From an uncultured Myxococcales bacterium (lineage in GTDB: Bacteria; Myxococcota; Kuafuiibacteriia; Kuafuiibacteriales; Kuafuiibacteriaceae), in contig CAYZFR010000002.1 of assembly GCA_964477875.1 (NCBI GenBank), positions 1 to 52,115 of the forward strand: a DNA stretch of 52,115 nucleotides, given 5' to 3'. The notes under the pieces are model-generated. The model ran no database searches. It was given only the letters and a program-made list of their open reading frames with translations, and was not told the DNA's origin. This document shows positions 1,390-50,145 of this stretch, in pieces. Positions within the stretch are counted from its first letter, which is position 1, and each line of letters begins with the position of its first letter. The position numbers were made by a program, and so were the translations under genes.

Positions 1390-2793
1390 ATGGGCCACGG
1401 CTTGATCCCAGCCCTGGCACTTCTGGCTTGGGTCCCGTTCACCTACTGGCTCCTCCAGAATCATCCGGTACCCAAGGCGGCTACCTATGCCCTCATGGGG
1501 GCCGCCCTGTTCCTGCCCAACCAGGTGGCCTTCGACCTTCCTCTCATTCCTCCACTGGACAAGGAGTCTCTCCCTCCCCTGGTGTTCCTGGTCTTCGCCC
1601 TCTTCCTATCACCGGCGGCGGTTCGCCGCGCCAAGCTGGGGACGGGTCCGGAGCTGCTGTTCCTTCTGGTTTTAATCGGGAGCATCGGAACCTGGTACTT
1701 CAACCGCAACGCGATCTACATCTCGGGCTGGCTCCAGTCCCACGTGTTGCCAGGGATGGGCCCTCGCGACACCCTCTTCATCGTAAATTCCAATCTCCTT
1801 CGCTTCATCCTGCCCTTCTGCGCCGCGCGAGTAGCAGTGCAGAGCGTCGCCGACTTTCGTTCCGTGATGCGTACGATCGTCATCCTGGGCCTGGTCTACG
1901 CGATCTTCGTACTGATCGAGGTTCGCATGAGCCCCCAGATCCACGCATGGGTGTACGGCTATCCGGGCCCCACCCAGAACTTCTCGCAAGCCATGAGGTG
2001 GGGTGGCTACCGCCCAAGCGTCTTTTTCCCCCACGGCCTCGGTCTGGCCATGTTCCTGCTCGCGGTTCTCCTCCTGCTGGCGGGCCTCTACAAGGCAAAG
2101 AAGCGCCTTTTTGGGATGTCCGTCCGCTGGTTCTTCTTCGGCTACTGCGTCATCCTGGTTCTCGAGAAGAGCACTGGGGCCATCGCTTACGCGGCTCTAT
2201 TTCTGCCGGTCCTGCTCTTTGCCCCTGTCATGCTCCAGCGCTGGTCCATCATCGCCGTGGCCGCCCTGGGGCTCGCCTACCCCGTGCTCATCGACGTGCT
2301 ACCCCGTCACGAGCTCGTCGATGCGATCACCGCGTACTCCCCGGAGAGGGCATCATCCCTCGCCTTCCGATTCGACAACGAAGACATTCTCGTCGAGCGA
2401 GCGAACAAAAAGTTTTGGGTAGGGTGGGGCAGTTTCGGCCGCAATCGCGTCTTCGATCCGGATACCGGGCTAGACGTGGCCGTTACCGACGGCGAATGGA
2501 TCATCCGGTTCGGTACTCAGGGGATGTTTGGCATGGCCACGGTGTTCCTACTCTTGATCGTGCCGGTCACTCAGCTCATGCGGCAGCTCAAGAGACACCG
2601 GCTCGGAAGAGAGCAGCATCTGATGCTCGGCGCAGCCATGTACATCGCGCTAGCATCCGCAGATCTCATCCTGAACGGATTACTCAGCTACTACATCCCG
2701 TTTTTCTTTGCCGGCTCCGTAGCCGGTCTCGCCCGACACCTGCGCGCCCTACCTCCCATTCGGGCAGGCAAACGGCACCGGGCTCAGTTGTAG
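1390..2793 (+). CDS. Polytopic membrane protein, O-antigen ligase/polymerase (Wzy_C)-like
   Basis: 467 aa with about 10-12 hydrophobic helices. A large loop (..ERANKKFWVGWGSFGRNRVF..TDGEWIIRFGTQGMFG..) resembles the Wzy_C periplasmic loop. Its 3' end overlaps the convergent cytochrome c gene by 10 nt. Confidence 0.45.
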   Translation: MGHGLIPALALLAWVPFTYWLLQNHPVPKAATYALMGAALFLPNQVAFDLPLIPPLDKESLPPLVFLVFALFLSPAAVRRAKLGTGPELLFLLVLIGSIGTWYFNRNAIYISGWLQSHVLPGMGPRDTLFIVNSNLLRFILPFCAARVAVQSVADFRSVMRTIVILGLVYAIFVLIEVRMSPQIHAWVYGYPGPTQNFSQAMRWGGYRPSVFFPHGLGLAMFLLAVLLLLAGLYKAKKRLFGMSVRWFFFGYCVILVLEKSTGAIAYAALFLPVLLFAPVMLQRWSIIAVAALGLAYPVLIDVLPRHELVDAITAYSPERASSLAFRFDNEDILVERANKKFWVGWGSFGRNRVFDPDTGLDVAVTDGEWIIRFGTQGMFGMATVFLLLIVPVTQLMRQLKRHRLGREQHLMLGAAMYIALASADLILNGLLSYYIPFFFAGSVAGLARHLRALPPIRAGKRHRAQL

Positions 2794-3347
2794 GTCTTCA
2801 CGTAGGCCATGATGTCCTGGAAGTCTTTGTCGGACATCGAGTCAGCGAAGTAGGGCATGACGGCCGGATAACCCCGAGCGATCTTTTTCTTGGAGTATAA
2901 GACCGACTCCTTGAAGTAACCGTCGTCGAAGGCCACGGCTTTTCCTCCCTCCAAGAGCGCCTGTTGGCCCCAGCGATTGTTCAGGTGCGGCCCGACCTTC
3001 CTCTGCCCGTTGAAACCGTGGCACCCGGCGCAGGCGTAGGTAATGTTGAAGTGACGCTCGCCTCGCTCGAGCTGAGTCATCTCCGACAGGTCGGTCTTCA
3101 GCTTCACGAGGGGCTTCAGCCCACCCTCTTTGGTCGCCACCATGGCGAGCGCCTTGTCGACGGGAATGCGGTACTTTTTGGTCTCTTCGACCTCGCCGTA
3201 GTCCGTCAGCATCTTGTGCTGTTGCTCGAGGTACGCTTCCTTGTCCGGGTATGGCTCGACCGGAAACAGGCTCACGTCCGGCACCCCGCACGCGACGATC
3301 GTGACCACAGTGGCCATGGAGAGGGTCTTGGATGGGAAGAGCTTCAT
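2784..3347 (-). CDS. Lipoprotein monohaem class-I cytochrome c, 7th gene of the ACIII operon
   Basis: One CAGCH haem motif plus a distal ..GYPAVMPYF.. Met. Resembles the cytochrome c domain of caa3 subunit II. Best start is the internal ATG at 3347 (MKLFPSKTLSMATVVTIVAC, lipobox IVAC) with AAGGA upstream. The track ORF extends to 3398. Confidence 0.7.
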   Translation of the reverse strand: MKLFPSKTLSMATVVTIVACGVPDVSLFPVEPYPDKEAYLEQQHKMLTDYGEVEETKKYRIPVDKALAMVATKEGGLKPLVKLKTDLSEMTQLERGERHFNITYACAGCHGFNGQRKVGPHLNNRWGQQALLEGGKAVAFDDGYFKESVLYSKKKIARGYPAVMPYFADSMSDKDFQDIMAYVKTYN

Positions 3348-3413
3348 CTCGAATCCTTTACAAACATCATGCCTCGGTCCCGCAGATTCGCAATCCAAAC
3401 GCGGCCGACCGCC

Positions 3414-4793
3414 TCAGTGGTTCTGAAAAGAAAGTGACTCCGGAAGCCGAGGGTCCTTGACCGGAACGAGATCCGCCCGTGCCGACACGAAAGCGAACGT
3501 CCCGAAGAACAGCGACACCACGCCAAACAAGCAAAGGACGTCGACGATGCTGAAGTGAGGGCTGGCATCCAAGATGGGCATCACCACGTAGTACAGATCG
3601 ACGTAGTGGATACCGAGCAGCCACACCGCACCCATGACCAGCGTGGTGGGGTTGCGCTTGATGCCTCGCGGCAAGAGGAAGAAGAAGGGAACGAAAAAGT
3701 GGCCGACCATCAAGGCCACGCCCACCTTCTCCCAGCCATTGATGCTCCGGTGGTAGTACCAGAGCGTCTCTTCGGGAATGTTCGCGTACCAAATCAGGAA
3801 GTACTGACTGAAGGCGATGTAGGTCCAGAAAACCGTGAAGCCGAAGAGGAGTTTGCCGATGTCATGGTAGTGCTCGGGGTTGATGATGCCCCGCACGTAG
3901 CCCGACCTCTGAAGCCCGATCGTCAACACCGCCAGACATCCGAAGATGGCGACCACGCAACCCGCGAAGTAGTACACCCCGAACATGGTCGAGAACCAGT
4001 GAGGGTCCATGGACTTCATCCAGTCGATGGCCGCGAAGGTAGTGGTGAAAGCGAACAAGATGACGCCCAGCGCAGAGAAGTTTTGCATCCGGCGGGTCAA
4101 ATCGTGCTCTCCACTATGGTCCTGACGGGTCGACGTCCGCCAGAAGAAAAACGCTAGAGCGCTCCATACCACCAGATAGAACACGGCTCGGAGCGTGAAG
4201 AAGCTTTCGTTCAGGTAGGGAGCCTTGTGGTCGAGGAGCGCGTCCTGACCCTCGAAATACCACCAATGGTAGTGGGTGCTGGACAGCCCAAAATAAACCG
4301 GGATGAACAGCAGCGCGAAGAGAGGGAGCGTCGCCATCACGTTCTCGGCGATGCGACGCACGACGACGCTCCAGCCGGCTCGAGCCAAGAACTGGATGAG
4401 GACGAAAAACAGGCCTCCGAGCGCCAGGCTGAGCCCGTACATGAAAGCCGTCAGATAAGAAAACGAGAAGCGCGTCAGCTCCGCATGGTGGCCTCCGTGG
4501 CCTTCGCCGCTCGGCTCGGCTCGATGGCCGCCCTCTTCTCCGTGTTCAGCTCCACCGTGCGCTGCAGCCCCGTGGTCGCCGTCAGCCTCGGCGTGCCCGT
4601 CGTCGGCCATCGCGACCGATTCGAAGCCGATCGAGGCATGCTCTTCGGCGCCGCCTTGTCCCAAGGCGAAGCCGAGAACCAGACACAGGATCCCCACACC
4701 CCAGAAGATGTATGGGTACTTGCGCCAGGGCGAATCGCTTTCGAAGCGCGTCTTGACGTCGGCGGGAATGGCCCGCAGTCGCTGATGACCCAT
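3414..4793 (-). CDS. actF: Alternative complex III subunit ActF (NrfD/PsrC-like quinol-binding membrane subunit 2)
   Basis: 459 aa polytopic protein, paralogous in style to ActC and sitting in the actABCDEF position. Carries a His/Gly/Glu-rich insert after TM1. Confidence 0.8.
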   Translation of the reverse strand: MGHQRLRAIPADVKTRFESDSPWRKYPYIFWGVGILCLVLGFALGQGGAEEHASIGFESVAMADDGHAEADGDHGAAAHGGAEHGEEGGHRAEPSGEGHGGHHAELTRFSFSYLTAFMYGLSLALGGLFFVLIQFLARAGWSVVVRRIAENVMATLPLFALLFIPVYFGLSSTHYHWWYFEGQDALLDHKAPYLNESFFTLRAVFYLVVWSALAFFFWRTSTRQDHSGEHDLTRRMQNFSALGVILFAFTTTFAAIDWMKSMDPHWFSTMFGVYYFAGCVVAIFGCLAVLTIGLQRSGYVRGIINPEHYHDIGKLLFGFTVFWTYIAFSQYFLIWYANIPEETLWYYHRSINGWEKVGVALMVGHFFVPFFFLLPRGIKRNPTTLVMGAVWLLGIHYVDLYYVVMPILDASPHFSIVDVLCLFGVVSLFFGTFAFVSARADLVPVKDPRLPESLSFQNH

Positions 4794-4796
4794 GAC

Positions 4797-5426
4797 TCAG
4801 TTCCAGCCTTTCTCTTTCGCGACGTCGTCGGGCACGGCGCTTCCGTCGGCGTAGGCCGCCCGCTGCAGCACGCGCACGTACGCCGCGATGGCCCAGCGGT
4901 CCCGCACTGGGATCTGGGCCCGATACGGCGGCATGTTGTTGTTCACACCATTCGTAATGACGTCGTAGAAGTGCCCGATGGGCATGGTCAGCAGGCGCTC
5001 GTTGTACAGCGCCGGCGGCTGAATGTTGCCACCTGAGTTCATGGACACCAAGCCCTTACCGGAGCCCGTCTTGGCGTGGCACGGCTGGCAGTAGATGTTG
5101 AAGCGCTCCTGTCCCCGGGCCAGGAACTCCTCGTTCAACTGCAACGGCTCCCCGTTCTCATCGACCTCCGGCAGGTCCTCGACCAGCTCCCCTTCGACCT
5201 TAGCGCGGTGAAGGTGGTCGTCGACCGTCAGCCCGCCGATTTTGACGGTACCTTCGACTGGCTTTCGATTCCCCATGGCCCCTGTGTATGGATTTTCTTC
5301 CTGCGGCTCGATCCGCTTCTGGAAGTCCATGTTCTGCTGGAGGTGGATCGGGGGTTCGGAAAACGTGCCGCCCTGGCACGCGGTGGCGAAAAGAGCCGCC
5401 ACCGTAATGAAACCTAGACTCTTCAT
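4797..5426 (-). CDS. actE: Alternative complex III subunit ActE (monohaem cytochrome c, probable lipoprotein)
   Basis: 209 aa. Signal peptide ends in ..FATAC. Single CQPCH motif. Position between actD and actF. Confidence 0.8.
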   Translation of the reverse strand: MKSLGFITVAALFATACQGGTFSEPPIHLQQNMDFQKRIEPQEENPYTGAMGNRKPVEGTVKIGGLTVDDHLHRAKVEGELVEDLPEVDENGEPLQLNEEFLARGQERFNIYCQPCHAKTGSGKGLVSMNSGGNIQPPALYNERLLTMPIGHFYDVITNGVNNNMPPYRAQIPVRDRWAIAAYVRVLQRAAYADGSAVPDDVAKEKGWN

Positions 5427-5428
5427 TT

Positions 5429-5958
5429 TCAGTCTTCCACCAGCTCGACGTGGCTAGCCCCCAACGACCTGAGAAACTCTGGAGTCTTCTCCGGGTCGAA
5501 CTGCGGGTCGTTGGCCTCGATCGAGATGAAGAACTTGTCGTCCGAGGCCGCCTTGAAGCGTTCGGACTCCAAGACGGGGTGATGCCAGCGTGGCAAGCGG
5601 TTCAAGAACAACATGCCCAAGACCGCCGACCCGGCCGAGAAAAGCACCATCACCTCGAAGGTGATCGGGATGAAGGCCTGCCAGGAAAAGAACGGCTTGG
5701 CTGCGATGATGATCGGGTAGTCGACGGCCGAGGTCCACCACTGGAGAAGCATTGCGCCTGACGCACCCGTGATGCCGCAGACGAACACGAAAAAAGGAAG
5801 ACGGGAGCGGGTCATGCCCATCGCGTCCTCCAGCCCATGGACCGGGAAAGGCGTGTGCGAATCCCACCTGGAGTACTTTGCGTCCCTGACCTTCTCACAG
5901 GCGTGGAAGATGGCGGGCGTGGTGTCGAACTGCGCCAGAACGCCAAAAGTCTTCTTAC

Positions 5959-5962
<4 letters not shown>
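5429..5962 (-). CDS. actD: Alternative complex III subunit ActD (DUF3341-like)
   Basis: 177 aa. Soluble N-terminal part, two central helices and the ..[10 protein letters not shown].. tail are typical of ActD. 4-nt overlap with actC. Confidence 0.75.
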
Positions 5963-7361
<1,399 letters not shown>

Positions 7362-7365
<4 letters not shown>

Positions 7366-10307
7366 CCGTTGGCCAACTCGGGGTTGGGATTGGTCAGCTT
7401 GGCGAGATACGTCGTCCGTGGGCGAATGTTGAGCTCGGCCAAAACGGCGTAGTTTCGGGGGTCCTTCTTCTTTTTGGCCACCTTCGTGTCCGGGTTGGCC
7501 ATGTCACCGAAGACGATGGCCCCCGTCGGGCAGGCCTGCTGGCAGGCAGTGACGATGGCGCCGTCCTTGATGTCGATGTCTCCTCCGCCAAACACCTTCT
7601 GGTGGATGCGGGCCTTCTGGATGCGCTGCGTGCAGTACGTGCACTTCTCCATCACGCCTCGGTAGCGCACGGTGACGTCCGGATTGCGCTGCATGGTGAT
7701 GCCCATCCCGTAGTCCTCGTCGTTGCGCACCGTGTAATGGAAGAAGTTGAAGCGCCGCACCTTGTAAGGGCAGTTGTTGGCGCAGTACCGAGTGCCGATG
7801 CAGCGGTTGTAGGCCATGTCGTTCAGGCCCTCGGGGCTGTGGGCCGAGGCACCGACCGGACACACGTTCTCGCAGGGCGCCGTCTCACACTGGCCGCAAG
7901 GCATGGGCTGGTACTTGACCTCGACCTCGCTCTCCGACTGCTCGAAGTATCGATCCACCCGGATCCAGTGCATTTCGCGTCCCTTGAGCACGTCGCTCTT
8001 GCCGACCCAAGGGATGTTGTTTTCTGCCTGGCAGGCGATGGTGCACGCGTTGCAGCCGGTGCACTGGTTGAGGTCGATGGTCATGGCCCACTGGTGCTTC
8101 CAGTCCTTGGCCCAAGGAAGGACGGGCTCTTCCCAGAGGAGCGACTCGATGTGCTCCTCCTTCATCACCTCGAACTTCTGAACGAAGTTTTCGTCTTCAG
8201 TGAAGTCGGTCTGGGTCGTACTCCGAACCAAGGGGCGGTCATGGAGTCCAGCTTCGATCTGGGCGCAGGCCAGCCGATAGCTTCCGCTGGCCCGGCTCAC
8301 CGAAGCTCCGCCGACGAAAGCGGCGCCGTCCACCGGACGGAGCCCGCTCACGTCGAAGCCGCTTCCAGCAAACTTGCCGTCGTCCGAGCGGCCGTAGCCG
8401 ATCGGGAGGACGACCACGTCATCCGCCGTGCCGGGTTGGATCCAGACCGGGAGCTCGAGGCTCTGGCCATCGACCGAAACCGACACCATCTGCTCGTTCT
8501 TTACGCCGAGCTTCTTGGCCGTCTTCGGTCCGAGGATGGCTGCGTTGTCCCAGGTCAGCTTGGTAATCGGATCCGGAAGCTCCTGCAGCCAGGGGCTGTT
8601 GGCGAAGCGGCCGTCCATCACCTTCAAGTCGCGGATGAAGACCAGCTCGGTGCCCTTCCCGGCCGCCTTCGGATAGGCAGCGACGAGACCGCTCGCGGTC
8701 AGCTCGAAGCCTTTCCGCTTCACCGGGTGCGAGTCGACGATCCCGTCGTGCAGCCAAACGGCCCAGGTCTTTTCGAAGTCGCCGTCGACGTGGGCCTTGT
8801 AAGTGGCCTTGACCTGCTCATAGCCGCTGGCGCCCTGTCCGAGAATCGCGGTCAGGATCTCGATGGGAGAAGCGGACTCGTGCAGCGGCGCGATGAGCGG
8901 CTGCTGTACGGACACGGTCCCATCTCGGGCCTGGAGGTCTCCCCAAGCCTCCAGATAGTGGCTCCTGGGCACGTGGAGCTTGGCGAGGCGCCCCGTCTCG
9001 TTCCGGAAAAGTCCCAGATGCAGGACCTGAGCCTTGCCCATCGCGTCGCCGAAGCCGGGCAGTTCGTGGGCTGGGTTGCCGCCCAGTACGACGACGTACT
9101 CGTGCTCGCCGCCCTTCATGGCCTCCACCAGATCGGCGGCCGATGACAGCTCGAGCCCGCTACGCTCGATCCACACCGCGATGCCGCCCTGTCGGGCAGG
9201 CATGGCCGCCGGCTGACCCTCGGCCTCGCCTTCCGACTCGGGGCGCGCAGGCGCAGCGCCGTAGGCCCCGAGCGCGCCGTTGATCAGATGCCCCAGGGCG
9301 TGGACCGCCGGCGGCTGCCGCTCGCCGACCACGACCAGCCCTCTGCCCTTGGCGGCCGCAAGATCCGCGGCAAGGGCCTTCACGAAGGCATCTCCGGCGT
9401 AGGCTTCGGCACCGGCCAGCTTGGGCAGATCGAAGCCTGCGGCGGCCAATCGAGCCGCCACGGCGGCCAAGACGCCGGGGACCTCGGAGGCCTTCACGGC
9501 CTTGCGATGGTCGGCGTTGGAGCCGGTCAAAGAGACGTGGGCTTCCGTCACGTAGAGCCGGTTCTTCTCTTTGGCGTCGGGATCCCGACCCTCGGCGAAA
9601 ATCCTGGAGAAGGCGACGGTGTCGCCTTCGGTCGCCATCGGATCGGCGTCGAAGACGGCCATGACCGCCGGTGCCGAGGCTATCGCCATGCTGGCGCCAG
9701 TGATGCCGGCCATGGCGGCACCGGCCCGGGCGTTCGCCTCTCCGAGGCCGTCATGTGCGTACAGCTTGGCGCCCGGCATCTCCGTCGCCAGCTGGCCGAG
9801 GAGGCGCTCCATGGTGGGCGAGGGCGTGTCGTCGATCAGCACCGCGAGGCCTCTCCCGCCCGCGTCCCGAGCCGTCTTGCCCATCGCCCGAATCGCGTCC
9901 ATGGCCGCCTTGGGCTCGACAGAGGCCCCGTCCAGGAAAGCGGTCCGGCTGCGATCCGGGTCGTAGAGCTCCAGCACCGAGGCCTGAGCCCAGGGCGGGG
10001 TCCCGCCTCGGCTCAGCGGATGGTTCGGGTTGCCGTCGACCTTCGTCGGCCGTCCGTCGTTAGAGCGCACGTTCAGCCCCAAAACGGAGCCGCCCAAGGC
10101 CACGGCGGTCGCGTAGTATTCAGGCCTGCCGGGCACTCGATCCTCGGGTCGCCGCCCGAAGGGCAGGATCTTCTCGTAGGGCTTGCGAATGCAGGCCGCG
10201 GTGTTGAGCGAAGCCATCGTAGCGCCCATCGCCGACAGAAAGGTTCGGCGGCTGGGGCTCTTGGGCTTGGCCATCATGCTCTCGTTTTTCGTGGTCATCG
10301 GTGGCAC
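7362..10307 (-). CDS. actB: Alternative complex III subunit ActB (molybdopterin-oxidoreductase-like domain fused to 4-cluster FeS domain)
   Basis: 981 aa. Tat signal [12 protein letters not shown]-terminal Cys clusters [44 protein letters not shown] and CTYCTQR..ACQQACP. Confidence 0.9.
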
Positions 10308-10951
10308 CCTGAGCAGTTCTGAGGAGGCTGGAGTTGGTTGCGGATTCGGTGAGGGTCAGAGGCCCAGTCGTATTTGGCGGCCTCTGGCGAGTCCTCCCAG
10401 CCCATTGTCGTGATCTCCGAATAGGGCCGCAGGTTCGGCTCCGGGTTACGGTGACAGCGGAGGCACCATCCCATGGAGAGCGGTGAGTGGAGGGCCACCT
10501 TCTCCATCTGGTCGATCCGCCCGTGACAGGTTTCGCAGCCCAGGCCGGCGGTCACGTGCACGTTGTGCGCGAAGTACGAGTAGTCGGGAAGCTGATGCAC
10601 CTTGATCCACGGGATCGGCTCTCCCGTCTCGTAGGACTCCCGGACCAGAGCCAGCTTCTCACTGTTCTTCTTCACGTAGGCGTGACAGTTCATGCACGTC
10701 TCCGCGGGCGGAATGGCTGCGTAGGCGGCCCGATCCACGGTGTTGTGGCAGTACCGGCAGTCGATGCCGAGTTTCCCAGCGTGGAGCTTGTGGCTGTAGG
10801 CCACCGGCTGCGTCGGCATGTAGCCGACGTCCGTGAAGTACGGGGAGAACCAATACAGCATGCCGAAAACGACCCCGACCCCGATGATCGGGACCGAGAC
10901 GGCGACGATGGTTGGGATTTTATTCGTCCACCTAGGGAAGGTATGACTCAC
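10295..10951 (-). CDS. actA: Alternative complex III subunit ActA (pentahaem cytochrome c, N-terminal TM anchor)
   Basis: Five CxxCH motifs (CRYCH, CMNCH, CETCH, CLRCH, CSGCH). I prefer the GTG start at 10951 (VSHTFPRWTNKIP + TM helix, GAAGGG upstream). Alternative starts are ATG 11023 and TTG 11035 (the track ORF). Confidence 0.85.
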   Translation of the reverse strand: MSHTFPRWTNKIPTIVAVSVPIIGVGVVFGMLYWFSPYFTDVGYMPTQPVAYSHKLHAGKLGIDCRYCHNTVDRAAYAAIPPAETCMNCHAYVKKNSEKLALVRESYETGEPIPWIKVHQLPDYSYFAHNVHVTAGLGCETCHGRIDQMEKVALHSPLSMGWCLRCHRNPEPNLRPYSEITTMGWEDSPEAAKYDWASDPHRIRNQLQPPQNCSGCHR

Positions 10952-11202
10952 GTTGTGACCCTTCTCGCTTGAATGGAGCCAGGGGGGCTCCGCCCAAAGC
11001 GTCGCGAAGCTAGCACCGGGCATCGAACCCTGCAAGCCGATGAGGACCTAGGAAATTTCGCACGGAATGCCGCGATCGCGCCCTGATGGGCACGATTCGA
11101 ACGCCTTGTCTCTGAACGGTCCCCGAGGCCGGAACTGGCCTCGAAGAGCCCGTATCCGCCCATGGGCGCACAACCTTCGACCACGGCGTCTGGTCCGGAC
11201 GC

Positions 11203-11235
11203 AAAAAGGGGCGAGGCCGCGGTCGACCTCGCCCC
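11203..11235 (-). terminator. Rho-independent terminator downstream of pufC
   Basis: Minus strand reads GGGGCGAGG-tcgaccgcgg-CCTCGCCCC followed by TTTTTGC. A 9-bp GC-rich stem plus a T5 run, about 35 nt after the pufC stop. Confidence 0.6.
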
Positions 11236-11269
11236 CGGAAAGAGAACGAATGACCGGCCGAAGGGGTAC

Positions 11270-12436
11270 TCAGTTGGGGACCGCGCCCTCCCCCTCGCCG
11301 TCCTCGGCTGCCGCCTCCTCGGCCTCCAGCGCCGCCGCCGCCGCTGCCTCGGCCTTCTGCTTCTTGCGATACTCGTCCGCGTACTCGGCGTAGTAATCGG
11401 GCGCCGACAGCGAAGGGTAGTGCTCGAGCATGTTGTAGCCAAGCAAGGGCTGGTAGGCCCCCTGGTGGCAGGTATAGCAGTTGGCCTTGGGTGCATCCCC
11501 CGTCGGTCCCAACCGGTAGTCCGGGTAACGCTCGACGAGCGGCGCGGTGTACTCCCCGTTCACGCTCCGAAGCATCCGGATCGCGTACCAGGCCTTGGCC
11601 CGGCTGGGCGGGCTCTGGTTCCACATCGCCATCGCCCGACTGTTGTGACAATAAGTGCAGTTCACGCCGAGTGCGTTCGAGAAGTGCATCATCAGACCAT
11701 AGGTCCACTCCGTCTGCTTGATCGAAGACGCATTCCCGGTCGGCAACGGCATGTCACCGATGACGCGAATGTTGTGGTCGTCGAGCAAGTAGGTCTCGAA
11801 GACGTTCCCTGGCAACGAGGCATAGCCGACCGCTTCTTCCGACCGGTTCTGATGCGCACGGCCGCCGGCACCGCGGCTCTCCATCTCGTGTGGCGCCTCC
11901 TTGTACCAAACGTAGGAGGGGACCGGCTGCCCCCGATGGCAGGTGTAGCAAGTGGCCCCCACGTTGCCGACGTGGCTCTTCCACTCGGCGTTGATGTGCT
12001 GGGTCATCTGAATCATCCGCCGCGCGACGTGCTTCGTATATTTCCCGTCCGAGGCCAGGTTGTTGGCGTAGTGGCAGTAGTTACAGCCGACCTCGCTCTC
12101 GGGCCCCTCTTTGGGCGCCACCCACTGGGTTATGGCGAGCATCAGCCGGGTGAACTGACCGGTCGACAGGTCTCCGAGGACCTGCACGTTCTGGTAGGCC
12201 TCCGATGCGCGAGGACCATCTGGGTTCGCGGCCGCGATCGGCTCGGGGTACTCGTTGTTGGCCGCTTCGACCTCGGCCAGGGTCTCCTCGTTGACGACGA
12301 CCTCCATCGCCGCTCCGTCGGGGCCGATCTGGACCACGCTCGTCGGGGGCGCCTGGAAGTTCCAGATCAGCACCGTCACCACGACGGCGACCGCCCCTCC
12401 GAGGAGGACGTAGAACTCTTTCATCGACAGCTTCAT
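11270..12436 (-). CDS. pufC: Photosynthetic reaction-centre tetrahaem cytochrome c subunit
   Basis: 388 aa. Four CxxCH motifs (CNYCH, CYTCH, CTYCH, CYTCH). N-terminal uncleaved-type TM helix. ATGA overlap with the pufM stop. Ala/Glu-rich C-terminal tail. Confidence 0.9.
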
Positions 12437-13407
12437 TGCGGCACCTCAGTCAGCCCGGGGTCGGGGAGCACGGGATAGACGGTCGGATACTCGATGGCGA
12501 AGCCGTGCTTGACCGCCCACAGGTACCAGTTGTCGACCACCGTGCCAGTCATGAGGATCCCAATCCCGCCGGTCAGGGTCGTCAAGACGGCGAACCACCA
12601 AGCCCATCGATGAATGGACTCGAAGGTCGCGTTGAAGCCCATGCACCAGCGCCAGAACAGAGCCGAGCGTTCGGCTGCCGTCCCAGGATCCGTAATCTGA
12701 CCAATCTCTCGCTCACCGCCCAGGTGTCCGAGCGCCAGCACGGTCGCTCCGTGCATCGCGAACAGCAACGTGGAGCCGTAGAGAAAGACGATCGAGAGAG
12801 CGTGGAAGGGGTTGTAGAACAAGTTTCCGTAGCGAAGGGAGAAGGCCGCCGTCCAGTCCAGGTGGGGGAAGATGCCGAAAGGCACCGCCTCGCCCCAAGA
12901 GCCCATGGCGATGGGCCGAAAGAAACCGAGGACCAGGTAGAGCCAGATCGCGGACAAGAAAGCCCACGACACGTCGGTTCCCATTCCCAACGCCTTCGCT
13001 CGACGATACGTCCGCACCCACCAAAGGATGATGGAGGCGGTGAGAAAGAACCCGGCTATCAACCACCATCCCCCCGCGTTCATGGGAGGAAAAGCGAGTC
13101 CATTCGAAGGCGCAGGCGGCTCGAGGGCCAGCCAGGGGAGCTGGCGCACGAACTCGATCGGGTCCCAGTTCACCGATGCCCACATGTTGAGCCCAATGAT
13201 CTCGAACGCGATCAAGAAGCAGACCGCCGACGTGAGCCCGAACCAGCCCAGATAGACCTGGCCGATTTGCGCGCTCCCGATTCGTCCGAAAAGGTGACTC
13301 AGCTTCTTGATGCGCCAGCGGGGAAAGAGGCCCTCCTCGATGGGGACCGTGTCCGATGGTCCTTTCACCTGAAGTTGGGTGAATATGTTCTGGTATTCCC
13401 TCATCAT
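12433..13407 (-). CDS. pufM: Reaction-centre M subunit
   Basis: 324 aa. Starts ..[14 protein letters not shown].. and contains ..[33 protein letters not shown].. . Confidence 0.95.
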
Positions 13408-13411
13408 TGTC

Positions 13412-14236
13412 TCAACTCCAAATCGGCAGCTCGAGCCACCAGACCCACCACTCGGGCCACCCGCGTGTCCAAAGTGGACCGCTGATGATGATGCAGATGG
13501 CGCTCCAGACGCCCGCGTTCAACGCAAGGAACAAGCCCAAGCGATGGATTCCGACCGCGCCAATCGAATAGCCGATGAAGTCACGGAAAAAGTTGTCTTC
13601 ATGCTCGGCACTTCGAACCGTTTCGCCCTTCTGAGGGTTGACCGTGGACAGGATCAAGCCTCCATGCAGGGCCAAGGCGAAGGTGGTCGTGAAGAAAAAG
13701 CTGACCGCGATCATGTGGGCCGGATTGTAGTGAAAGTGTAGGTACTGGTAGCCGACGTTCGACACCCAGTCCAAGTGGGGAAAGATCCCGTAGGGGAAGC
13801 CGTGTCCCCAAGCGCCCAGCAGCAAAGGCCGAAAAATGACCAGTGTGACGTAGGCAAAGATTGCCGTCCCGAACGCGAAGGAGATGTGGTAGCCCATGCC
13901 GAGCTTCCTCGCGATCTCCGCCTGACGTAAAGCCCAGGACACAAAAGCGCCCGTGGCGCAGATGGTAACTAGCTGCCAGATACCACCCTCCTCGAGCGGA
14001 GCGAAGCCCAGGCCGTATTTGAGGGGCGGAGGTTCGACGTTCAGAATCCAGGGATTCCAAGTGGGTCCCATCGAACCGTCCCAAATGATCAAAGCCGTAC
14101 CGAGAACGGTAAAGAAGATTGTCGTGACGCCAAAGAAACCGACGTAGAACGGGCCGACCCAAAAATCGAATAGGTCACCCCCGATCAACGTCCCTCCTCG
14201 GACGCGGTATTTTTTTTCGAAGCTCAGCAAGGCCAT
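13412..14236 (-). CDS. pufL: Reaction-centre L subunit
   Basis: Starts [36 protein letters not shown] and contains ..[30 protein letters not shown] at 14236 has GAGGAG upstream. The track ORF begins 2 codons earlier at a TTG. Confidence 0.95.
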
Positions 14237-14267
14237 GACCAAGGTCTCCTCATCAGAAGCGGAGGGA

Positions 14268-14288
14268 CGAGCGCACGAGGTGCGCTCG
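14268..14288 (-). promoter_or_regulatory. Intercistronic pufA-pufL RNA stem-loop
   Basis: CGAGCGCAC-gag-GTGCGCTCG, a 9-bp perfect inverted repeat with no following U-run, in the 66-nt pufA-pufL spacer. Analogous in position to the Rhodobacter pufBA mRNA-stabilising hairpin. Confidence 0.5.
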
Positions 14289-14302
14289 CCCCACCCATCT
14301 TT

Positions 14303-14500
14303 TCAGCGATAGCCGGTCGGCAGGCCACTATTGTGGCCTGCCGCGGTCGCACCCGACTCCATTCCCGCCGGCTGGTCGAGCCAGTTGTACCTGTCGGTAC
14401 TGAGCAGCAGGAAGTGAATCGAAAATGCCAGGATCCCCAAAAAGGTGAACAAGCCGACAATGGCCTGGCGTGGGTCAAAAACCATCCAAATTTTCCACAT
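14303..14500 (-). CDS. pufA: Light-harvesting 1 alpha polypeptide
   Basis: 65 aa: MWKIWMVFDPRQAIVGLFTFLGILAFSIHFLLLSTDRYNWL + 24-aa tail. BChl-ligand His sits in AFSIHF. ATG at 14498-14500 with GGAG 10 nt upstream. The 116-aa track ORF is an N-terminal over-extension. Confidence 0.85.
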   Translation of the reverse strand: MWKIWMVFDPRQAIVGLFTFLGILAFSIHFLLLSTDRYNWLDQPAGMESGATAAGHNSGLPTGYR

Positions 14501-14514
14501 GATATGCAGTCTCC

Positions 14515-14730
14515 TTATGTGAGGATGTTGGCGACCGAGGACATGACCTCGGCCCCTTCCAACATCGCTCGTTCTGCGGGTCGAATCCACGGACGCCATG
14601 CGAACATCAGCGCGTGGGCGAGGATGGCAAAGGCCAGATAGACGCCAAACCACGTCGTAAAGTATCCGTGCAGCTCCTTGGCCTCCGCTTCCGTTAGGCC
14701 CGATTGGGCAAATAGTCCTTTTTCACTCAT
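14515..14730 (-). CDS. pufB: Light-harvesting 1 beta polypeptide
   Basis: 71 aa: ..AEAKELHGYFTTWFGVYLAFAILAHALMFAWRPW + 23-aa tail. Canonical beta-chain His and WRPW motif. Confidence 0.85.
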   Translation of the reverse strand: MSEKGLFAQSGLTEAEAKELHGYFTTWFGVYLAFAILAHALMFAWRPWIRPAERAMLEGAEVMSSVANILT

Positions 14731-14752
14731 TTTTTCTTCAACCTCTCGGCGC

Positions 14753-14830
14753 CCCGCATCTCTTGATGCGGGCTTGAGTCGCGGGCTGTCGCCCGTCGAC
14801 GTTTTCCTGAGCCCGAACGAAATCGGGCTC
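14753..14830 (-). promoter_or_regulatory. Cluster of RNA stem-loops in the pufQ-like/pufB spacer (5' region of pufB)
   Basis: Inverted repeats read directly: CCCGCATC-tctt-GATGCGGG (14753-14772), CGGGC-tgtc-GCCCG (14782-14795) and GAGCCCGA-acgaaa-TCGGGCTC (14809-14830). Confidence 0.4.
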
Positions 14831-14835
14831 CTGCC

Positions 14836-15051
14836 TCACGCCATGAAGACGAAGGCCAGGACGTTGTGAACATGTGCATGGGCTTCATCGAGCACGGTCG
14901 CCCTCGTGGTCCCGCGCCGACGGGGCACGAAGCGTGAGAGCGCAACCATCGGCAGGGCCACGAAGAGCCCGAAGGCATAATACATCCGGTACTGACGCTC
15001 GTCAGAAATCCTTCGTGTTCGTGTCGTTGCTACACTCGTGTCGTACATCAT
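14836..15051 (-). CDS. pufQ: PufQ-like small membrane protein
   Basis: 71 aa. ATGA-coupled to the bchZ stop and located between bchZ and pufB, as pufQ is in Rhodobacter. Basic N-terminus then one TM helix ([19 protein letters not shown]). The call rests on position and architecture. Confidence 0.5.
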
Positions 15052-16517
15052 TGCTTCTCCATGATGGGTCTAACTGACCCTCCTCGGGTGGCGCGAACCA
15101 CCTCGAGAACTTGATTCGAGACTCGCTCGTCACCGCGACGGCGAGCCTCTTGTTCGATCGCGTCTCGCCAGCTCTTGGCTGCCGAGATGCGCGTGAGGAC
15201 AGGTTCCTGCTCCAGCATCGCGTCGAGCGCACGTCGTGCTTCTTCGTCCCAGGGGAGCGAATTCGCCTTGGCCGGTGTCGCCTCGACCCGGTCCAGCTCG
15301 GTGGAGAGCGGGAGGATGTTGAAAAGCGCATCGAAGAGCGCGTTGCAGACCTCCTGCAGGAGATAGGTGGCTCCGGCGTAGCCCATGAAGGGTGTGCCGG
15401 TGTGCCGGCGGATGGCGGTCCCAGGGAAGGAAGCCGGGATGTAGACCGACTTCGCGCCGGTCTCCGCCATGTACATCCGCTCGTTGTAGGAGCCGAACAC
15501 GATCAACGGAGGCTTGCTCTGGACGGCCTCCCGAATCGCCTCGTTGTCTGGCTTCACCCCTGCGCTGCGACCGAAGGCGAAGTGGCACGGCATCCCGAGC
15601 TCGTCTTCGAGGAAATGACGGAGCCCGCGGCTGTAGGTCTCGTTGGCCGAGACCCCGAAGCTGGCGGTGCCAAAGAAGTCCTGGGTGACCGAGCGCCACA
15701 AATCCCACACCGGCTTGATCGTGGTGTGCTTCTCTTTCTCGATGAAGGGCGCCGGGTCGAGGCCGATGGCCTCCCCGAGCTTCTCCAAGAATGCCGTGGT
15801 GCTGTGGAGTCCGATCGGTGCCTGGAAAAAGGGACGGTCCAGCTCTTCGCACAGAAGCCTCCCGTATTCGCGGTACATGCAGACGTTCGCATCAGCGTTC
15901 ACGAGCTTCGGGAGATCCTCCAGATGCGCACCGAGCGGGAACACCATGTTCACCTCCGCCCCAATGCCTTCGATGAGCCGGCGGATCTCTGCGAGGTCGG
16001 ACCAGGTGTTGAAGTAGCCGTAGGCGGGTCCGATGATGTTGACCCGCGGCTTTGCTCCTTCGGGTTGCTTCGCTCGACGGGGCATCTTGCCGTTCTTCGC
16101 TCCGTACTGCGACCACAGCCAAAACAGCGCCCGGTCGGCGCTCTGCCACTGGTCCTCGTCGATCGTTCGAGGCAGGAAACGTTGGATGCCGGTGCCTTCC
16201 GGCGTGACACCGCCGCCGATCATCTCAGCGATGGACCCGGTCACGACGACGCTCGGCAGCGAGGAGTCCAGCACTTCGTGGGCGCGGCGCATCGAGTCTT
16301 CGGTCCCTTTTTGACCGAGCTCTTCTTCGGCGAGGCCCGTTACGACGATCGGCAGCTCGTGGGGTGGAAGGCCGTCGGTGTAGTGGAGGACCGACGTGAC
16401 GGGGAGGTTCTCGCAGCCAACCGGCCCGTCGATGATGACCTGTAGACCCTTCACCGCCGAGAACACGTACACGGCGCCCCAGTAGCCACCTGCACGGTCG
16501 TGATCCATTACGAGCAC
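15048..16517 (-). CDS. bchZ: Chlorophyllide a reductase subunit Z
   Basis: 489 aa: [48 protein letters not shown].. . Position after bchY. Confidence 0.9.
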
Positions 16518-18019
16518 TTGGTCGCCTCCTTTCCTGAGACGGGCTTGGCCTTTTGAAGCTTCGCCAGGTGCTTCTTTCGGAAACCAGGTCGATCTTCCGG
16601 CACATCTTCCCAGACGCCAGCTGCATGCTCGCTCCCGACGCCTTCAAAGAAGGCGCGCATGGTCGACATCCGCTCCTTGTTCGATAGGGCGGTGCTCAGG
16701 ACGCTCGCTACCGAACCGGCACCCGCAGCGCCCATCAAGGGACGGGCCGAGATGAGATTCGTGAAGTAGAGAGCCGGAGAGCCCTGCTCCTTGGCCTTCT
16801 GTACGACGGGCGTCGTACCGACGACGAGCTCGGGTTCGAACTCCGCCATGGCTGCCAGGTCCTGCTCGAGAGAAGCGCGGTACTGTACGCGAACGCCCCT
16901 CCCTTCCAACCACTGGCAGTCGGCCTCGGACCACTCGGTGCGCGGGCACGCCGTCCCCACGTAGCGGAGGTCGGCGCCGCTTTCGACGAGCAGTCGTCCG
17001 ACGATGAGCTCCGAACCTTCATAGCCCGACAGCGTGATGCGTCCTTTGATCGGGGCCGCGGCCAGAGCCTCCTCGACGGCAGGAAGTGCAGCGTCGTGGG
17101 CTTTCGCTAGCTGGGCTGAAGAGGCCCCGACCTGCTCGGAGAGAGCGCGAAGCCACTCCGCCGTTCCCTCCCGACCGACAGGCGCGGAGCCGAACACGGG
17201 GCGCCCAGCGGCCTGGAACTCCCGGACGGTGGCGGTGTAGAACGGATGGATGGCCGCGACGACTTGGCTGTCGAGGGCCGCGTACTGCTCACGCCATTCT
17301 CGGGTCGGGACGACCGGACCCGCCGCGAGTCCCAGGGGCTCGACCAGGCGGCCGATCGTCACCGGGTCGACGGGGAACATTTCACCCAAGAGCGCGACGG
17401 TCGGCACCTCCCGCACGCCCTCCCGGGGCGTAGCCACCGGGCCTTGTTCGGCTTCGGAGCGGGCGTAAGCCAGCATCGCGCCGGAGAGGATGTCTTTGGC
17501 CTCGGCGTGGGTTGGGACGCCGAATCCAGGGACGTCGATCCCGATGATGCGAACGCCGTTGATCTCTTTGGGCAGAAGCCGCAGCGGAACGCCCGAGGCC
17601 GTGGGCACACACAGGTTGGTGATGACCACTGCATCGTAGCGGTCGGGGTCCGCCACCTTGAAGACGGCTTCTCGAATGTCTTCGAAGAGCTTGCCGGTCA
17701 CGAGCGTCTCGGAATCGAAAGGCACGTAACCCACCGTACGACGTGCGCCGTAGAAGTGAGAGGTGAAGGTCAGCCCGTACACGCAGCACGCGGAGCCTGA
17801 CAGAATCGTGGCCGTTCTCCGCATCCGAAGCCCGACCCGCAACGAACCAAAAGCCGGGCACATGCTCTGCGGTTGGTCATGCGGACCCATCGGATAGTCT
17901 TCGGCATAGCGCGCGAGCACCTCGCTCTGACCCGCGTTCTCAGCCGCCTGACGCAGGCGCTCCTTGCCGCCGTGGCAGCCGCCGTCCTCGACGATCGGTA
18001 GTGACGATTCGGTACTCAT
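16508..18019 (-). CDS. bchY: Chlorophyllide a reductase subunit Y
   Basis: 503 aa. NifD/BchN-like with ..[41 protein letters not shown].. . ATGA overlap with bchX. Confidence 0.9.
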
Positions 18020-19974: not shown

Positions 19975-19992
19975 TGTCAAGCATGCTTAACA
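19975..19992. promoter_or_regulatory. PpsR/CrtJ-type operator TGT-N12-ACA upstream of bchC
   Basis: TGTCAAGCATGCTTAACA, a near-perfect 18-bp palindrome 17 nt upstream of the bchC start codon. A degenerate second copy, TGTccatcttcagggACG, lies at 20000-20017, 7 bp away. Confidence 0.65.
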
Positions 19993-22012: not shown

Positions 22013-22056
22013 TGTCAGACAAACTCAACAGCCTGGAGTGTAGATTTTATCAGACA
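22013..22056. promoter_or_regulatory. Tandem PpsR/CrtJ-type operators (2 x TGT-N12-ACA, 8-bp spacer) upstream of crtE
   Basis: TGTcagacaaactcaACA (22013-22030) and TGTagattttatcagACA (22039-22056) are both perfect, separated by 8 bp. They lie in the 56-nt bchO-crtE spacer, and the second overlaps the bchO stop. Confidence 0.65.
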
Positions 22057-26583: not shown

Positions 26584-27054
26584 TCAGCCCTGCATGGGCG
26601 CGTAGCTCAAGCAGTAGCCGTTCGGGTTGACGGGTCCGCTGAACAGCTTGCATCCACCGCAAGCCGACCCGCCCTTGGGCTTGATGTACTGTGCGCAATT
26701 CTTACAGTATTTGCCCTCGTTCGGCGACTTGGCCACGTACTGCAGCGTCTTGCGCATCGACTTCGACTGGTCGTCGACCTTCGACTGGTCACAAGCGATC
26801 TCGCCGCTCTTGCTGTCCTTCTTCTCGGTGTCCGCGGCCGCGGTCTCCGCAGGCTGTGAGCCCGGCTTCTTCTCGGGCATCTTCTCTTTGGACTTTGCCT
26901 CCGCCTTCTCGGTGGCTTCTTTTTTGGCGGCCGGACCGCCGCCGCCGCCCTCGGTGCACGCTAGGAGACTAGGGGCCGCGACGAGGCCGGCGCCCAAAAT
27001 TTGGAGCGTTTGACGTCGTGAGATGATCGGGGTGATGGAGTTGTGGTCGTTCAT
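26584..27054 (-). CDS. High-potential iron-sulfur protein (HiPIP) with Tat signal, lipobox and long flexible linker
   Basis: 156 aa. Twin-arginine SRRQTL, lipobox SLLAC (Cys33), Lys/Glu/Ala/Pro-rich linker (about aa 34-95). HiPIP core is YCKNCAQY..GGCKLFSGPVNPNGYCLSYAP, matching the CxxC..GC.LF.G.VN.NGWC.SW pattern. Confidence 0.8.
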   Translation of the reverse strand: MNDHNSITPIISRRQTLQILGAGLVAAPSLLACTEGGGGGPAAKKEATEKAEAKSKEKMPEKKPGSQPAETAAADTEKKDSKSGEIACDQSKVDDQSKSMRKTLQYVAKSPNEGKYCKNCAQYIKPKGGSACGGCKLFSGPVNPNGYCLSYAPMQG

Positions 27055-27104: not shown

Positions 27105-27371
27105 TCAAGCCGTTTTTTTCGTTCGTACTCTGCTTCGCAGATCGAAGAGGTGTGCTGGAAGCGAAAGGGTCAAGAAGAGGGCCGAAAAGCGCCAGTCCCA
27201 CCCAGCGAGGGCGCTCCGCAGCGCCAACATCAGGAAGGCCCCTGCTGCGAGGTTCATGACGGCGGCTCGCCCCTGGGGCCCTGGCCACAGCCACAGAAGT
27301 CCCACCGCCTCCAAGAACACCAGGACCAGGATCGCGTCGATGGCTCGCCCGCTCGCGACCCAATCTGCCAT
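27105..27371 (-). CDS. Small hypothetical membrane protein (3 predicted TM helices)
   Basis: 88 aa. Starts 3 nt after the MFS::bchP stop. Hydrophobic segments ILVLVFLEAVGLLWLW, VMNLAAGAFLMLAL and FSALFLTLSL. No family recognised. Confidence 0.45.
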   Translation of the reverse strand: MADWVASGRAIDAILVLVFLEAVGLLWLWPGPQGRAAVMNLAAGAFLMLALRSALAGWDWRFSALFLTLSLPAHLFDLRSRVRTKKTA

Positions 27372-32393: not shown

Positions 32394-32407
32394 CTTCTCC
32401 TGGTTCT

Positions 32408-41310: not shown

Positions 41311-42011
41311 TGGACAGCCTGAGCTACCAGCAGAGTCGAAGCCGGCTGGAGGCCTACTTCGACCGAACCGCGGCCGACGCCTGGGCCCAGCTCACCTCGG
41401 ATCGACCGGTGAGCTGGATCCGCCGTACGGTCCGGGCCGGCCGCAAGGAGATGGCAGAGGGGATCATGGCGATGCTGCCCGAAGACCTCTCTGGCCAGCG
41501 CCTGCTCGATGCCGGGTGCGGAACCGGCATCCTATCCGTTGCCGCCGCCCAGCGCGGCGCTGACGTGGTGGCCATCGACCTGTCCCCTACCCTGGTGGAG
41601 CTCGCGCGGGAGCGCGTCCCGGCCCAGCTCGGTAGCGGCAGCATCGACTTTCGGGTCGGCGACATGATCGATCCCGAGCTCGGAGACTTCGACACGGTGG
41701 TAGCGATGGACTCGCTGATCCACTACTGCGCCCCGGACATCACGGCGATGGTGGAGCGCCTGGCGGCCCGGGCCCGGCGCCAGGTCGTCTTCACCTACGC
41801 GCCTCGGACGCCGCTTCTGGCCGTGATGCACTGGGTAGGCGGCTTTTTTCCCAGGTCGGACCGGGCGCCTTTCATCCAGCCCATCTCGCAGCGGAAGCTG
41901 AGCGGCGCCCTCCGCGCCTCCCCCCTCCTCGAGGGTTGGCAGCTCGGGCGCAGCATCCACGTTGGCCGGGGCTTCTACACATCTCGCGCCCAGGAACTCG
42001 TTCGCGCATGA
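41310..42011 (+). CDS. bchM: Mg-protoporphyrin IX O-methyltransferase
   Basis: 233 aa. SAM motif LLDAGCGTGILS. N-terminal ..LEAYFDRTAADAWAQLTSD.. . Confidence 0.9.
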
Positions 42012-49983: not shown

Positions 49984-50145
49984 GCTGCTTGGCTCCTGAG
50001 TGGAGGGCCGCCGGTACGGCCACTATCGACATCCCGTAACACATGTCGCCTCGACCATGTTTCGATTTGGGTGAGTTTGACGGCCTAGGCGTTGTGCCTA
50101 AGCTCCCTCGCGACCCCGGCAAAGGGGCAGATAGGAAGGGCTCGC

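Follow-up and report, generated by a model that had tools for sequence, protein, structure and literature searches.

The window analysed here, a stretch of 52,115 nucleotides of metagenomic DNA, carries a photosynthesis gene cluster (PGC) in which the operon of a purple-type reaction centre (pufBALMC, 14730 to 11270, minus strand) precedes the genes of an Alternative Complex III (ACIII; actABCDEF) and a seventh gene for a lipoprotein cytochrome c (10951 to 2784), all of them on one strand. A sequence-only reading of the window had already described this arrangement, and all genes named there were recovered in place or within a few codons. By its gene content, the window belongs to an uncultured phototrophic member of the Myxococcota, with the PGC layout that has been described for Candidatus (Ca.) Kuafubacteriaceae. 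The nearest PufC loci (L numbers denote loci, P numbers protein clusters) all carry Myxococcota or Myxococcales labels. The PufC of L003 is 87% identical, and L005 is the metagenome-assembled genome (MAG) LLY-WYZ-16_1 (GCA_031800475.1), a member of Ca. Kuafubacteriaceae. L003 and L004 come from the MAGs JBCCQA01 and JBHJGZ01. In addition, the window contains the bchG/lhaA-like/bchP arrangement, which was described as specific to the Kuafubacteriaceae (Li et al. 2023, PMC10576062).

The predicted reaction centre is of the purple type, with the L, M and H subunits, a membrane-anchored tetrahaem cytochrome PufC, and the light-harvesting complex 1 (LH1). Family matches were obtained for all five puf genes (Table 1). 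PufC contains four CxxCH motifs and has an N-terminal transmembrane anchor (helix at residues 7-25). An 84-aa open reading frame (ORF) at 14224-14478 was also considered as pufA and rejected in favour of the frame listed. The surrounding PGC reaches from puf (or act) as far as puhE at 47487. Besides pufBALMC and puhA it contains bch, crt, acsF, lhaA and ppsR genes, grouped into the blocks that are canonical for purple-type clusters. These are bchCXYZ-orf-pufBALMC; crtF, crtE, bchO, bchD and bchI; an alpha/beta-hydrolase, a high-potential iron-sulphur protein (HiPIP), an 88-aa ORF and a PucC-like/BchP ORF; bchG, ppsR and a B12-binding regulator; and bchFNBHLM-lhaA-puhA-puhB-puhC-acsF-puhE.

Table 1. 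Features of the puf-act block, its spacer and the candidate electron carriers in the window
Feature	Position	Strand	Product or type	Evidence and details
pufB	14515..14730	-	LH1 beta polypeptide	NCBIfam pufB_517_ASD 1.6e-15; one transmembrane helix
pufA	14303..14500	-	LH1 alpha polypeptide	Pfam LHC 1.5e-14; agrees with the 65-aa gene call on L001
pufL	13412..14242	-	Reaction-centre L subunit	Pfam Photo_RC 8.7e-96
pufM	12433..13407	-	Reaction-centre M subunit	Pfam Photo_RC 1.7e-101
pufC	11270..12436	-	Tetrahaem reaction-centre cytochrome	Pfam CytoC_RC 3.8e-131; NCBIfam PufC 4.3e-132
Terminator	11207..11236	-	Predicted intrinsic terminator, 34 nt past the pufC stop codon	13-bp stem, 10 G-C pairs, 4-nt loop, T5 tail
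Promoter-like site of act	11007..11035	-	TTGCAG, 17-nt spacer with extended TG, TAGCTT	Cross-locus alignment
actA	10295..10951	-	Pentahaem cytochrome c with transmembrane anchor	6F0K chain A 9.1e-71
actB	7362..10298	-	Tat-exported molybdopterin-like and Fe-S subunit	6F0K chain B 1.2e-228
actC	5959..7365	-	NrfD-like quinol-interacting membrane subunit	Pfam NrfD 3.2e-25; 6F0K chain C 8.2e-198, residues 19-458
actD	5429..5962	-		Pfam PF11821 ActD 1.6e-68; two transmembrane helices
actE	4797..5426	-	Monohaem lipoprotein cytochrome c	One CxxCH, lipobox ATAC; 6F0K chain E 1.6e-41
actF	3414..4793	-	Second NrfD-like membrane subunit	6F0K ActF chain 3.8e-88; also 8K9E, 6LOD, 6BTM
Seventh gene	2784..3347	-	Membrane-tethered lipoprotein monohaem cytochrome c, candidate ACIII acceptor/PufC donor	Pfam Cytochrom_C 9e-09
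HiPIP gene	26584..27054	-	Tat-exported lipid-tethered HiPIP inside the PGC, second candidate ACIII-PufC carrier	Pfam HIPIP 1.1e-06

The act genes are arranged as actA-B-C-D-E-F on one strand (10951 to 3414), and the ACIII is complete with all subunits intact. Their hallmarks agree with those noted before. ActA is a pentahaem protein with five CxxCH motifs and one transmembrane helix (residues 42-60), ActE is a monohaem lipoprotein, ActC and ActF are two NrfD-like subunits, and ActD belongs to PF11821. ActB, which corresponds to the 978-aa cluster P0001, has a twin-arginine translocation (Tat) motif (SRRTFL), a weak Molydop_binding match, Fer4 domains, and three groups of four and one group of three cysteines (C749/752/755/759, C804/807/812/816, C836/842/846 and C889/892/922/926). 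ActA, ActB, ActC, ActE and ActF all have their best structural match in the complex of Rhodothermus marinus (6F0K); the complexes of Roseiflexus, Chloroflexus and Flavobacterium come next in an order that varies by subunit. ActF has no Pfam match and eight predicted transmembrane helices, the range of ActC and ActF being 8-10. Between the first two of these helices, at residues ~46-104 (window ~4480-4660, minus strand), there is a low-complexity insert rich in His, Gly, Glu, Asp and Ala. The insert is absent from the solved ActF chains, to which most alignments begin near residue 105, and the matching stretch of L003 gives no tblastn match to it. The start of actA is the GTG at 10951, in agreement with the JGI gene call and the cross-locus alignment. 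The TTG at 11035, which opens the longest ORF, was rejected as a start; it lies within the -35 hexamer of a promoter-like site.

Two candidate electron carriers accompany these complexes, each of which is predicted to combine a lipoprotein or anchor signal, a linker and a single redox domain. The cytochrome c encoded by the seventh gene most likely starts at M18 and consists of a lipobox (IVAC), a linker of ~70 residues and a domain with the haem motif CAGCH. The lipobox is kept in all seven homologues that were read (7/7). Its best match in the PDB is the cytochrome c domain of the R. marinus caa3 oxidase subunit CoxII (1W2L, 2e-13), and there is a weak match to 6XKW. The gene stands directly 3' of actF not only in the window but also in L003, L004, L005, L007, L083, L085, L088 and L171. 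The second carrier is the HiPIP encoded within the PGC, for which the Tat motif (SRRQTL), lipobox (LLAC), linker (~60 residues rich in Lys, Glu and Ala) and HiPIP domain were all found, which confirms the tethered HiPIP noted before. Its best PDB match is 3H31 (1.6e-14), which we take to be the HiPIP of R. marinus. The distribution of the HiPIP was followed in a survey of the 80 genome loci whose PufC is closest to that of the window. Homologues are located directly after pufC in L009 (11046-11483), L031 (10917-11564) and L046 (11006-11503), which represent another PGC type of the Myxococcota, and Tat motif, lipobox and linker are conserved in these three and in L084, the linkers being long and composed of Ala, Pro, Lys and Glu. 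From the remaining loci of this set the HiPIP is almost absent, with one weak match in L042. A tethered HiPIP is thus a recurrent PGC gene in the Myxococcota.

In purple-type phototrophs the cytochrome bc1 complex serves as quinol oxidase, and HiPIP, cytochrome c2 or cytochrome cy conducts the electrons to the reaction centre. The observation that the window has no petABC-like gene was borne out: neither Rieske boxes nor a PEWY motif appeared in a scan of the six frames of the 52-kb window, and the Pfam search revealed no cytochrome b or c1 among its annotated ORFs. Because the reaction-centre genes adjoin a complete ACIII operon and membrane-tethered carriers, the light-driven electron loop is probably closed by ACIII rather than by bc1. 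As a whole, we consider it reasonably probable that the ACIII encoded beside the purple-type puf operon re-oxidises the reaction-centre quinol and that the tethered cytochrome c or HiPIP returns the electrons to PufC. Light would drive quinone reduction at the reaction centre, and the quinol would be oxidised at ActC. The electrons would then pass through the Fe-S clusters of ActB and the haems of ActA and ActE on the periplasmic face, and from there via the lipid-tethered cytochrome c, the HiPIP or both to PufC and the photo-oxidised special pair, while ACIII would contribute to the proton gradient. Export and anchor signals are predicted to place the cofactor domains of ActA, ActB and ActE, both carriers and PufC on the periplasmic side. 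The positions of HiPIP genes after pufC or after actF in related loci would fit such a loop from ACIII via a carrier to PufC. The tethered carriers might even hold reaction centre and ACIII together in a short-range, supercomplex-like circuit. The accessible part of the supplement of PMC10576062, which covers a different MAG, has no entry for petB, K00412 or complex III. In the metabolic scheme drawn for another Kuafubacteriaceae MAG, complexes I, II, IV and V are shown but III is not (PMC12343361), weakly hinting that no bc1 had been detected in that MAG.

Since the window is a metagenomic contig, and since the closest relatives of puf outside the clade are proteobacterial while those of act are labelled Myxococcota, the junction could be suspected to be a chimera of assembly or binning. 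However, an identical PufC is encoded on two separate contigs, L001 (JGI sample 3300012009) and L002 (an ENA microbial-mat assembly), both of which run from puf into actA-actB. Across NCBI MAGs, JGI, ENA and Logan, 11 or more divergent loci show this gene order, partly on contigs of 259-598 kb. The recurrence in independent assemblies of all four sources, together with the correlated divergence of puf and act described below, shows that the junction is no misassembly. A chimera is effectively refuted, and we regard it as extremely improbable.

A synteny survey of the kind that the sequence-only reading had suggested shows that the linkage is conserved within one clade of Myxococcota and absent from the surveyed proteobacterial PGC loci and from distant act loci. 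In the PufC survey, act follows pufC directly in six of the 80 loci, all six being Myxococcota, and 73 loci, which are mostly proteobacterial but include other PGC types of the Myxococcota, contain no act genes. A pair of genes ~5 kb downstream of pufC in the one remaining locus, L010 (Piscinibacter sp. MQ-18, 15552-17538), was examined as a possible ACIII. It consists of a generic Fer4 protein with weak similarity to ActB and a weakly ActC-like ORF (tblastn 26%, no Pfam match) and was rejected because ActA, ActD, ActE and ActF are absent. On the side of act, the full-length ActB clusters P0001-P0018 have lengths of 943-979 aa and identities of at least 54%, whereas all others reach at most 51%; they form a single clade in neighbour-joining trees (bootstrap 100/100). 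Within this clade, pufC is located directly upstream of act in every cluster representative with upstream sequence (9/9), and also in L006 and L014. For comparison, a distant control set of ActB loci was collected by a metagenome scan with the ActB alignment of the clade and with two peptide patterns common to all ActB (38-45% identity among the matches listed). As a negative control, the 80 distant loci among these matches (0.99 Mb) do not contain any puf or bch gene.

The neighbours of act outside the clade reveal what the linkage has replaced. The sister clusters P0019 and P0020 have the order SCO1-actABCDEF and no puf, and in the outgroup P0022 the cluster reads SCO1-actABCDEF-orf-SCO1-coxII-coxI-coxIII-coxIV. 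On contig 42 of MAG LLY-WYZ-3_1, the act genes are likewise followed by sco and coxB according to the supplement of PMC10576062. The window therefore resembles this respiratory cluster of the Myxococcota (L086 and LLY-WYZ-3_1, with a caa3-type coxII) in having homologous act genes in the same order, but pufBALMC replaces the upstream SCO1, and a stand-alone cytochrome c or HiPIP replaces the downstream SCO1 and cox genes. In the distant act loci with enough downstream sequence among the matches listed, a related cytochrome c domain is always part of CoxII, ~2 kb past actF (37/37), which argues that the clade has swapped an oxidase-borne acceptor domain for a free-standing tethered one. Pairwise identities of PufLM and ActBC co-vary across eight loci (Spearman 0.85; Mantel r=0.92, p=2e-4); puf and act have therefore diverged in step ever since they were joined, in a single event. 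Outside the puf-act block, in contrast, the genes differ in every subclade. From this comparison of loci, the adjacency is a conserved trait of single origin in a Myxococcota clade, and it is functionally suggestive. In the ancestor of the clade, the puf end of the PGC would have joined the act transcription unit of the host. The cox partner would then have been lost from the locus, a free-standing tethered cytochrome c would have taken the position after actF, or in one lineage a tethered HiPIP, and the joined block would have been co-inherited since.

The same history can be read in a less functional way. The PGC or its puf end might have landed by accident beside a housekeeping respiratory act operon and might have been kept there by vertical descent only, with cyclic flow depending on a bc1-type complex encoded elsewhere. 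Several observations support this alternative and weigh against ACIII as the dedicated partner of the reaction centre. One ancestral event followed by vertical descent can in principle explain all of the conserved linkage, which is confined to one ActB clade. In the window, act forms the edge of the PGC and not its interior, since its left-hand neighbours, past the seventh cytochrome c gene, are an ORF of no assigned family and a metallo-beta-lactamase. The closest relatives of this cytochrome c that do not stand alone are fusions of CoxIV with cytochrome c (52-57% identity), so that its electrons could go to an oxidase in place of the reaction centre, or to both. The strong terminator after pufC in the window (folding energy -27.2 kcal/mol) is the best terminator-like site within 2500-15500, and act has a promoter-like motif of its own, with the same architecture before actA in the sister locus L087, which has no PGC. 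A PpsR site (TGT-N12-ACA) is not present within 11036-11269, although this is a weak test as the window contains 6 matches against 3.7 expected by chance. Against an accident, the linkage has been retained across lineages that share only 55-60% identity in ActB and 56-62% in PufC, while the genes outside differ per subclade. The SCO1 and cox neighbours of the sister lineages have gone and stand-alone tethered carriers are in their place. In one lineage the link has become tighter, with a gap of 21 nt, an act operon enclosed by PGC genes and a HiPIP after actF. Altogether we regard an accident of this kind as rather unlikely.

The CoxIV-cytochrome c fusions are P0134 (L169, 223-921) and P0135 (L170, 54-752), which consist of a COX4_pro and a cytochrome c domain; both loci are short contigs on which the fusion gene adjoins a porin-like gene.

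The spacer between pufC and actA, whose length had been given correctly, comprises 234 nt to the start of the ORF and 318 nt to the GTG. A hairpin equivalent to the terminator, with a T9 tail, is found in L003, and the other loci have weaker candidates or none. The terminator is therefore not a feature of the whole clade. In the promoter-like site, which is situated 83-91 nt upstream of the actA start, the columns CTTGCA and GGTGCTAnnnT are invariant in five loci (the window, L003, L004, L005 and L083) and the rest of the spacer is unconserved. A generic promoter scan missed this site, as its -10 hexamer agrees with the consensus at only three of six positions, and it was recognised by cross-species alignment only. 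Since the SCO1-act locus L087 has a similar motif in the absence of a PGC, the motif is probably older than the linkage. A second subclade (L007, L014 and L088) has a different conserved motif upstream of actA, CTTGATT ... CGAAGGTCC, that is CTTGATT, ~20 nt and CGAA(G/T)GTCC. It is located at ~11320-11372 in L007, ~11350-11398 in L014 and ~6515-6565 in L088, and its end ~10 nt before the GTG of actA might mean a very short or absent leader. TGT-N12-ACA palindromes occur elsewhere in the window at 19975-19992, 22013-22030 and 22039-22056. They fall into the bchC/crtF and crtE/bchO spacers, where two form a close pair; ppsR is encoded at 30954-32813.

Judged by these signals, act is probably its own transcription unit in the window, perhaps with some read-through from puf. 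The coupling of the two would therefore be one of co-location and co-inheritance and not of operon fusion. Thus, the proposal that a quinol oxidase has been recruited into the PGC goes too far for the window: the genes are co-located and co-inherited, but the edge position, the terminator, the separate promoter-like motif and the missing PpsR palindrome do not support a recruitment into the operon or a co-regulation with puf. An operon fusion is not seen in the window, and among the relatives only L084 has one.

L084 is Ca. Photomyxococcus marinus (its HiPIP is identical to that of strain E2-BRE-13; PGC contig JAVKDZ010000082.1), a member of the Coleofasciculus sp. BRE co-culture, and its pufC and actA are only 21 nt apart. 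Here, a tethered HiPIP (13965-14366), preceded by a small membrane ORF, replaces the cytochrome c after actF, and crtB, crtI, crtE and lhaA-bchP come next. Because the HiPIP and the crt and lhaA-bchP genes come after act, the ACIII genes are truly embedded in the PGC of this organism. The paper naming Ca. P. marinus reports its PGC on a 416-kb contig; it lists act and the HiPIP gene among the flanking genes that carry an 'x' and no number, and does not comment on them.

The proposal of an ACIII-based loop can also be put more sharply: the PGC-linked ACIII would be a dedicated photosynthetic paralogue, and a second, respiratory act-sco-cox cluster would be encoded elsewhere in the genome. Such a division of labour is known from Chloroflexus, which has two act operons, one for phototrophy and one for respiration. 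The PGC-linked ActB proteins belong to a distinct clade and are shorter (943-979 aa) than the other ActB, matches beyond P0021 being mostly ~1000 aa or longer. Furthermore, the linked locus has neither cox nor SCO1 and comes with dedicated tethered carriers. However, P0019 and P0020 might just as well represent orthologues from relatives that are not phototrophic, and the retention of an older promoter motif is what would be expected of an unduplicated housekeeping operon. We therefore think that a duplicated, specialised ACIII is unlikely.

The proposed loop can be compared with several known systems. The first ACIII to be discovered was that of R. marinus, a quinol:cytochrome c/HiPIP oxidoreductase, and in Chloroflexus and Roseiflexus the complex serves cyclic electron flow; Roseiflexus employs the lipoprotein cytochrome c551 to carry electrons from the complex to its reaction centre (PMC10873879). 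In Rubrivivax and Thermochromatium, according to work cited in PMC10873879, the tetrahaem reaction centre receives its electrons from HiPIP. By analogy, both halves of the proposed electron path have precedents. The chain of R. marinus consists of ACIII, HiPIP and a caa3 oxidase. The act subunits of the window are closest to 6F0K, the HiPIP to 3H31 and the seventh cytochrome c to 1W2L. Unlike in R. marinus, the partner of the act operon is a reaction-centre operon instead of an oxidase, the cytochrome c domain stands alone as a lipoprotein outside CoxII, and the HiPIP is lipid-tethered by a long linker.

With Chloroflexus and Roseiflexus (8K9E and 6LOD, with auracyanin or cytochrome c551 as carrier) the window would share, by analogy, the pairing of an ACIII with a type-II reaction centre and its tetrahaem cytochrome. 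The lipoprotein monohaem cytochrome c and the N-terminal transmembrane helix of PufC also have their counterparts in Roseiflexus. In contrast, the reaction centres of these bacteria are without H subunit, whereas the L/M/H/C reaction centre of the window is encoded in a PGC of classical layout, and the window lacks a gene for auracyanin. To our knowledge, ACIII-based cyclic flow is known only for these H-less reaction centres of the Chloroflexota. In the genomes of Chloroflexus and Roseiflexus, act is presumably not adjacent to puf. The photosynthesis genes of Chloroflexus are scattered and do not form clusters (PMC9316378).

The similarity to purple bacteria such as Rubrivivax, Thermochromatium and Rhodobacter extends to the type of reaction centre and LH1, to the architecture of the PGC (bchCXYZ-pufBALMC, bchFNBHLM-lhaA-puhA and ppsR), to the HiPIP as probable donor to a tetrahaem PufC, and to tethered carriers that resemble cytochrome cy (the weak match to 6XKW). 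It ends at the quinol oxidase: the genes next to those of the reaction centre encode ACIII and not bc1. We know of no purple bacterium in which the pet/fbc operon is linked to the PGC. A quinol-oxidising complex within a photosynthesis gene cluster does have a parallel in Heliobacillus mobilis, whose PGC includes the cytochrome bc (pet) genes. This case differs from the present one in combining a type-I reaction centre with a bc-type complex, in the Firmicutes.

Other genes of the window lie outside the puf-act block. A 467-aa ORF (1390-2793, plus strand) is convergent with the seventh cytochrome c gene, whose 3' end it overlaps by 10 nt. It is without Pfam or NCBIfam match and occurs at the same position, with 58% identity, in L003 only. 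Between bchZ and pufB, in the position of pufQ in Rhodobacter-type PGCs, there is a 71-aa ORF (14836-15051, minus strand) that has no Pfam match but is 41-81% identical in five related loci (L003, L004, L006, L007 and L083). An 836-aa ORF (27375-29885, minus strand) comprises a PucC/LhaA-like domain of the major facilitator superfamily (residues 32-421) and a BchP-like FAD geranylgeranyl reductase domain (from ~450). It may be a real fusion, because an 831-aa gene call in L084 has both domains too; a second, separate lhaA is encoded at 41936-43438 (PUCC 9e-141). Between this bchP-containing ORF and the HiPIP, an 88-aa ORF (27105-27371, minus strand) is predicted to encode a small membrane protein of no Pfam family, with homologues in L084 (13669-13995), L009, L031, L046 and a few proteobacterial PGC loci (L038, L063 and L064). 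It was considered as a partner of the HiPIP and rejected; it is probably a bchP-linked PGC gene because it is found downstream of bchP in several PGCs, including proteobacterial ones. Beyond puhE follow a gene for a 645-aa protein with three tandem DsbA/thioredoxin domains (48046-49983, minus strand) and dnaK (50092-52065, plus strand). Rfam and tRNA scans of the window gave no matches.

The founding paper on phototrophic Myxococcota does not mention ACIII, bc1, complex III or cytochromes (Li et al. 2023, PMC10576062), and the literature searched on ACIII in connection with Myxococcota, phototrophs and aerobic anoxygenic phototrophs yielded nothing relevant and does not discuss a puf-act linkage. 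The parts of the locus are all of known kinds, a purple-type reaction centre, an ACIII, a HiPIP and a tethered cytochrome c, but their conserved physical linkage is undescribed in the literature searched. It is conceivable, although we would not quite expect it, that the clade represents the first purple-type L/M/H/tetrahaem reaction centre whose cyclic flow is wholly independent of bc1. The block of puf, act and carrier genes would then be a self-contained, co-inherited module, with its ACIII adapted or duplicated from the act-cox genes of the host respiratory chain after a proteobacterial-type PGC had arrived. For this uncultured group the locus provides a concrete hypothesis, namely a path from ACIII via a tethered cytochrome c or HiPIP to PufC, which could be tested because a non-axenic culture containing one member of the clade exists (PMC13043013). 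If ACIII is the quinol oxidase of the reaction centre, a proteobacterial-type photosystem has been plugged into the different respiratory backbone of its host. Such a case would inform our view of how phototrophy is passed between phyla and of the host components on which a transferred PGC depends.

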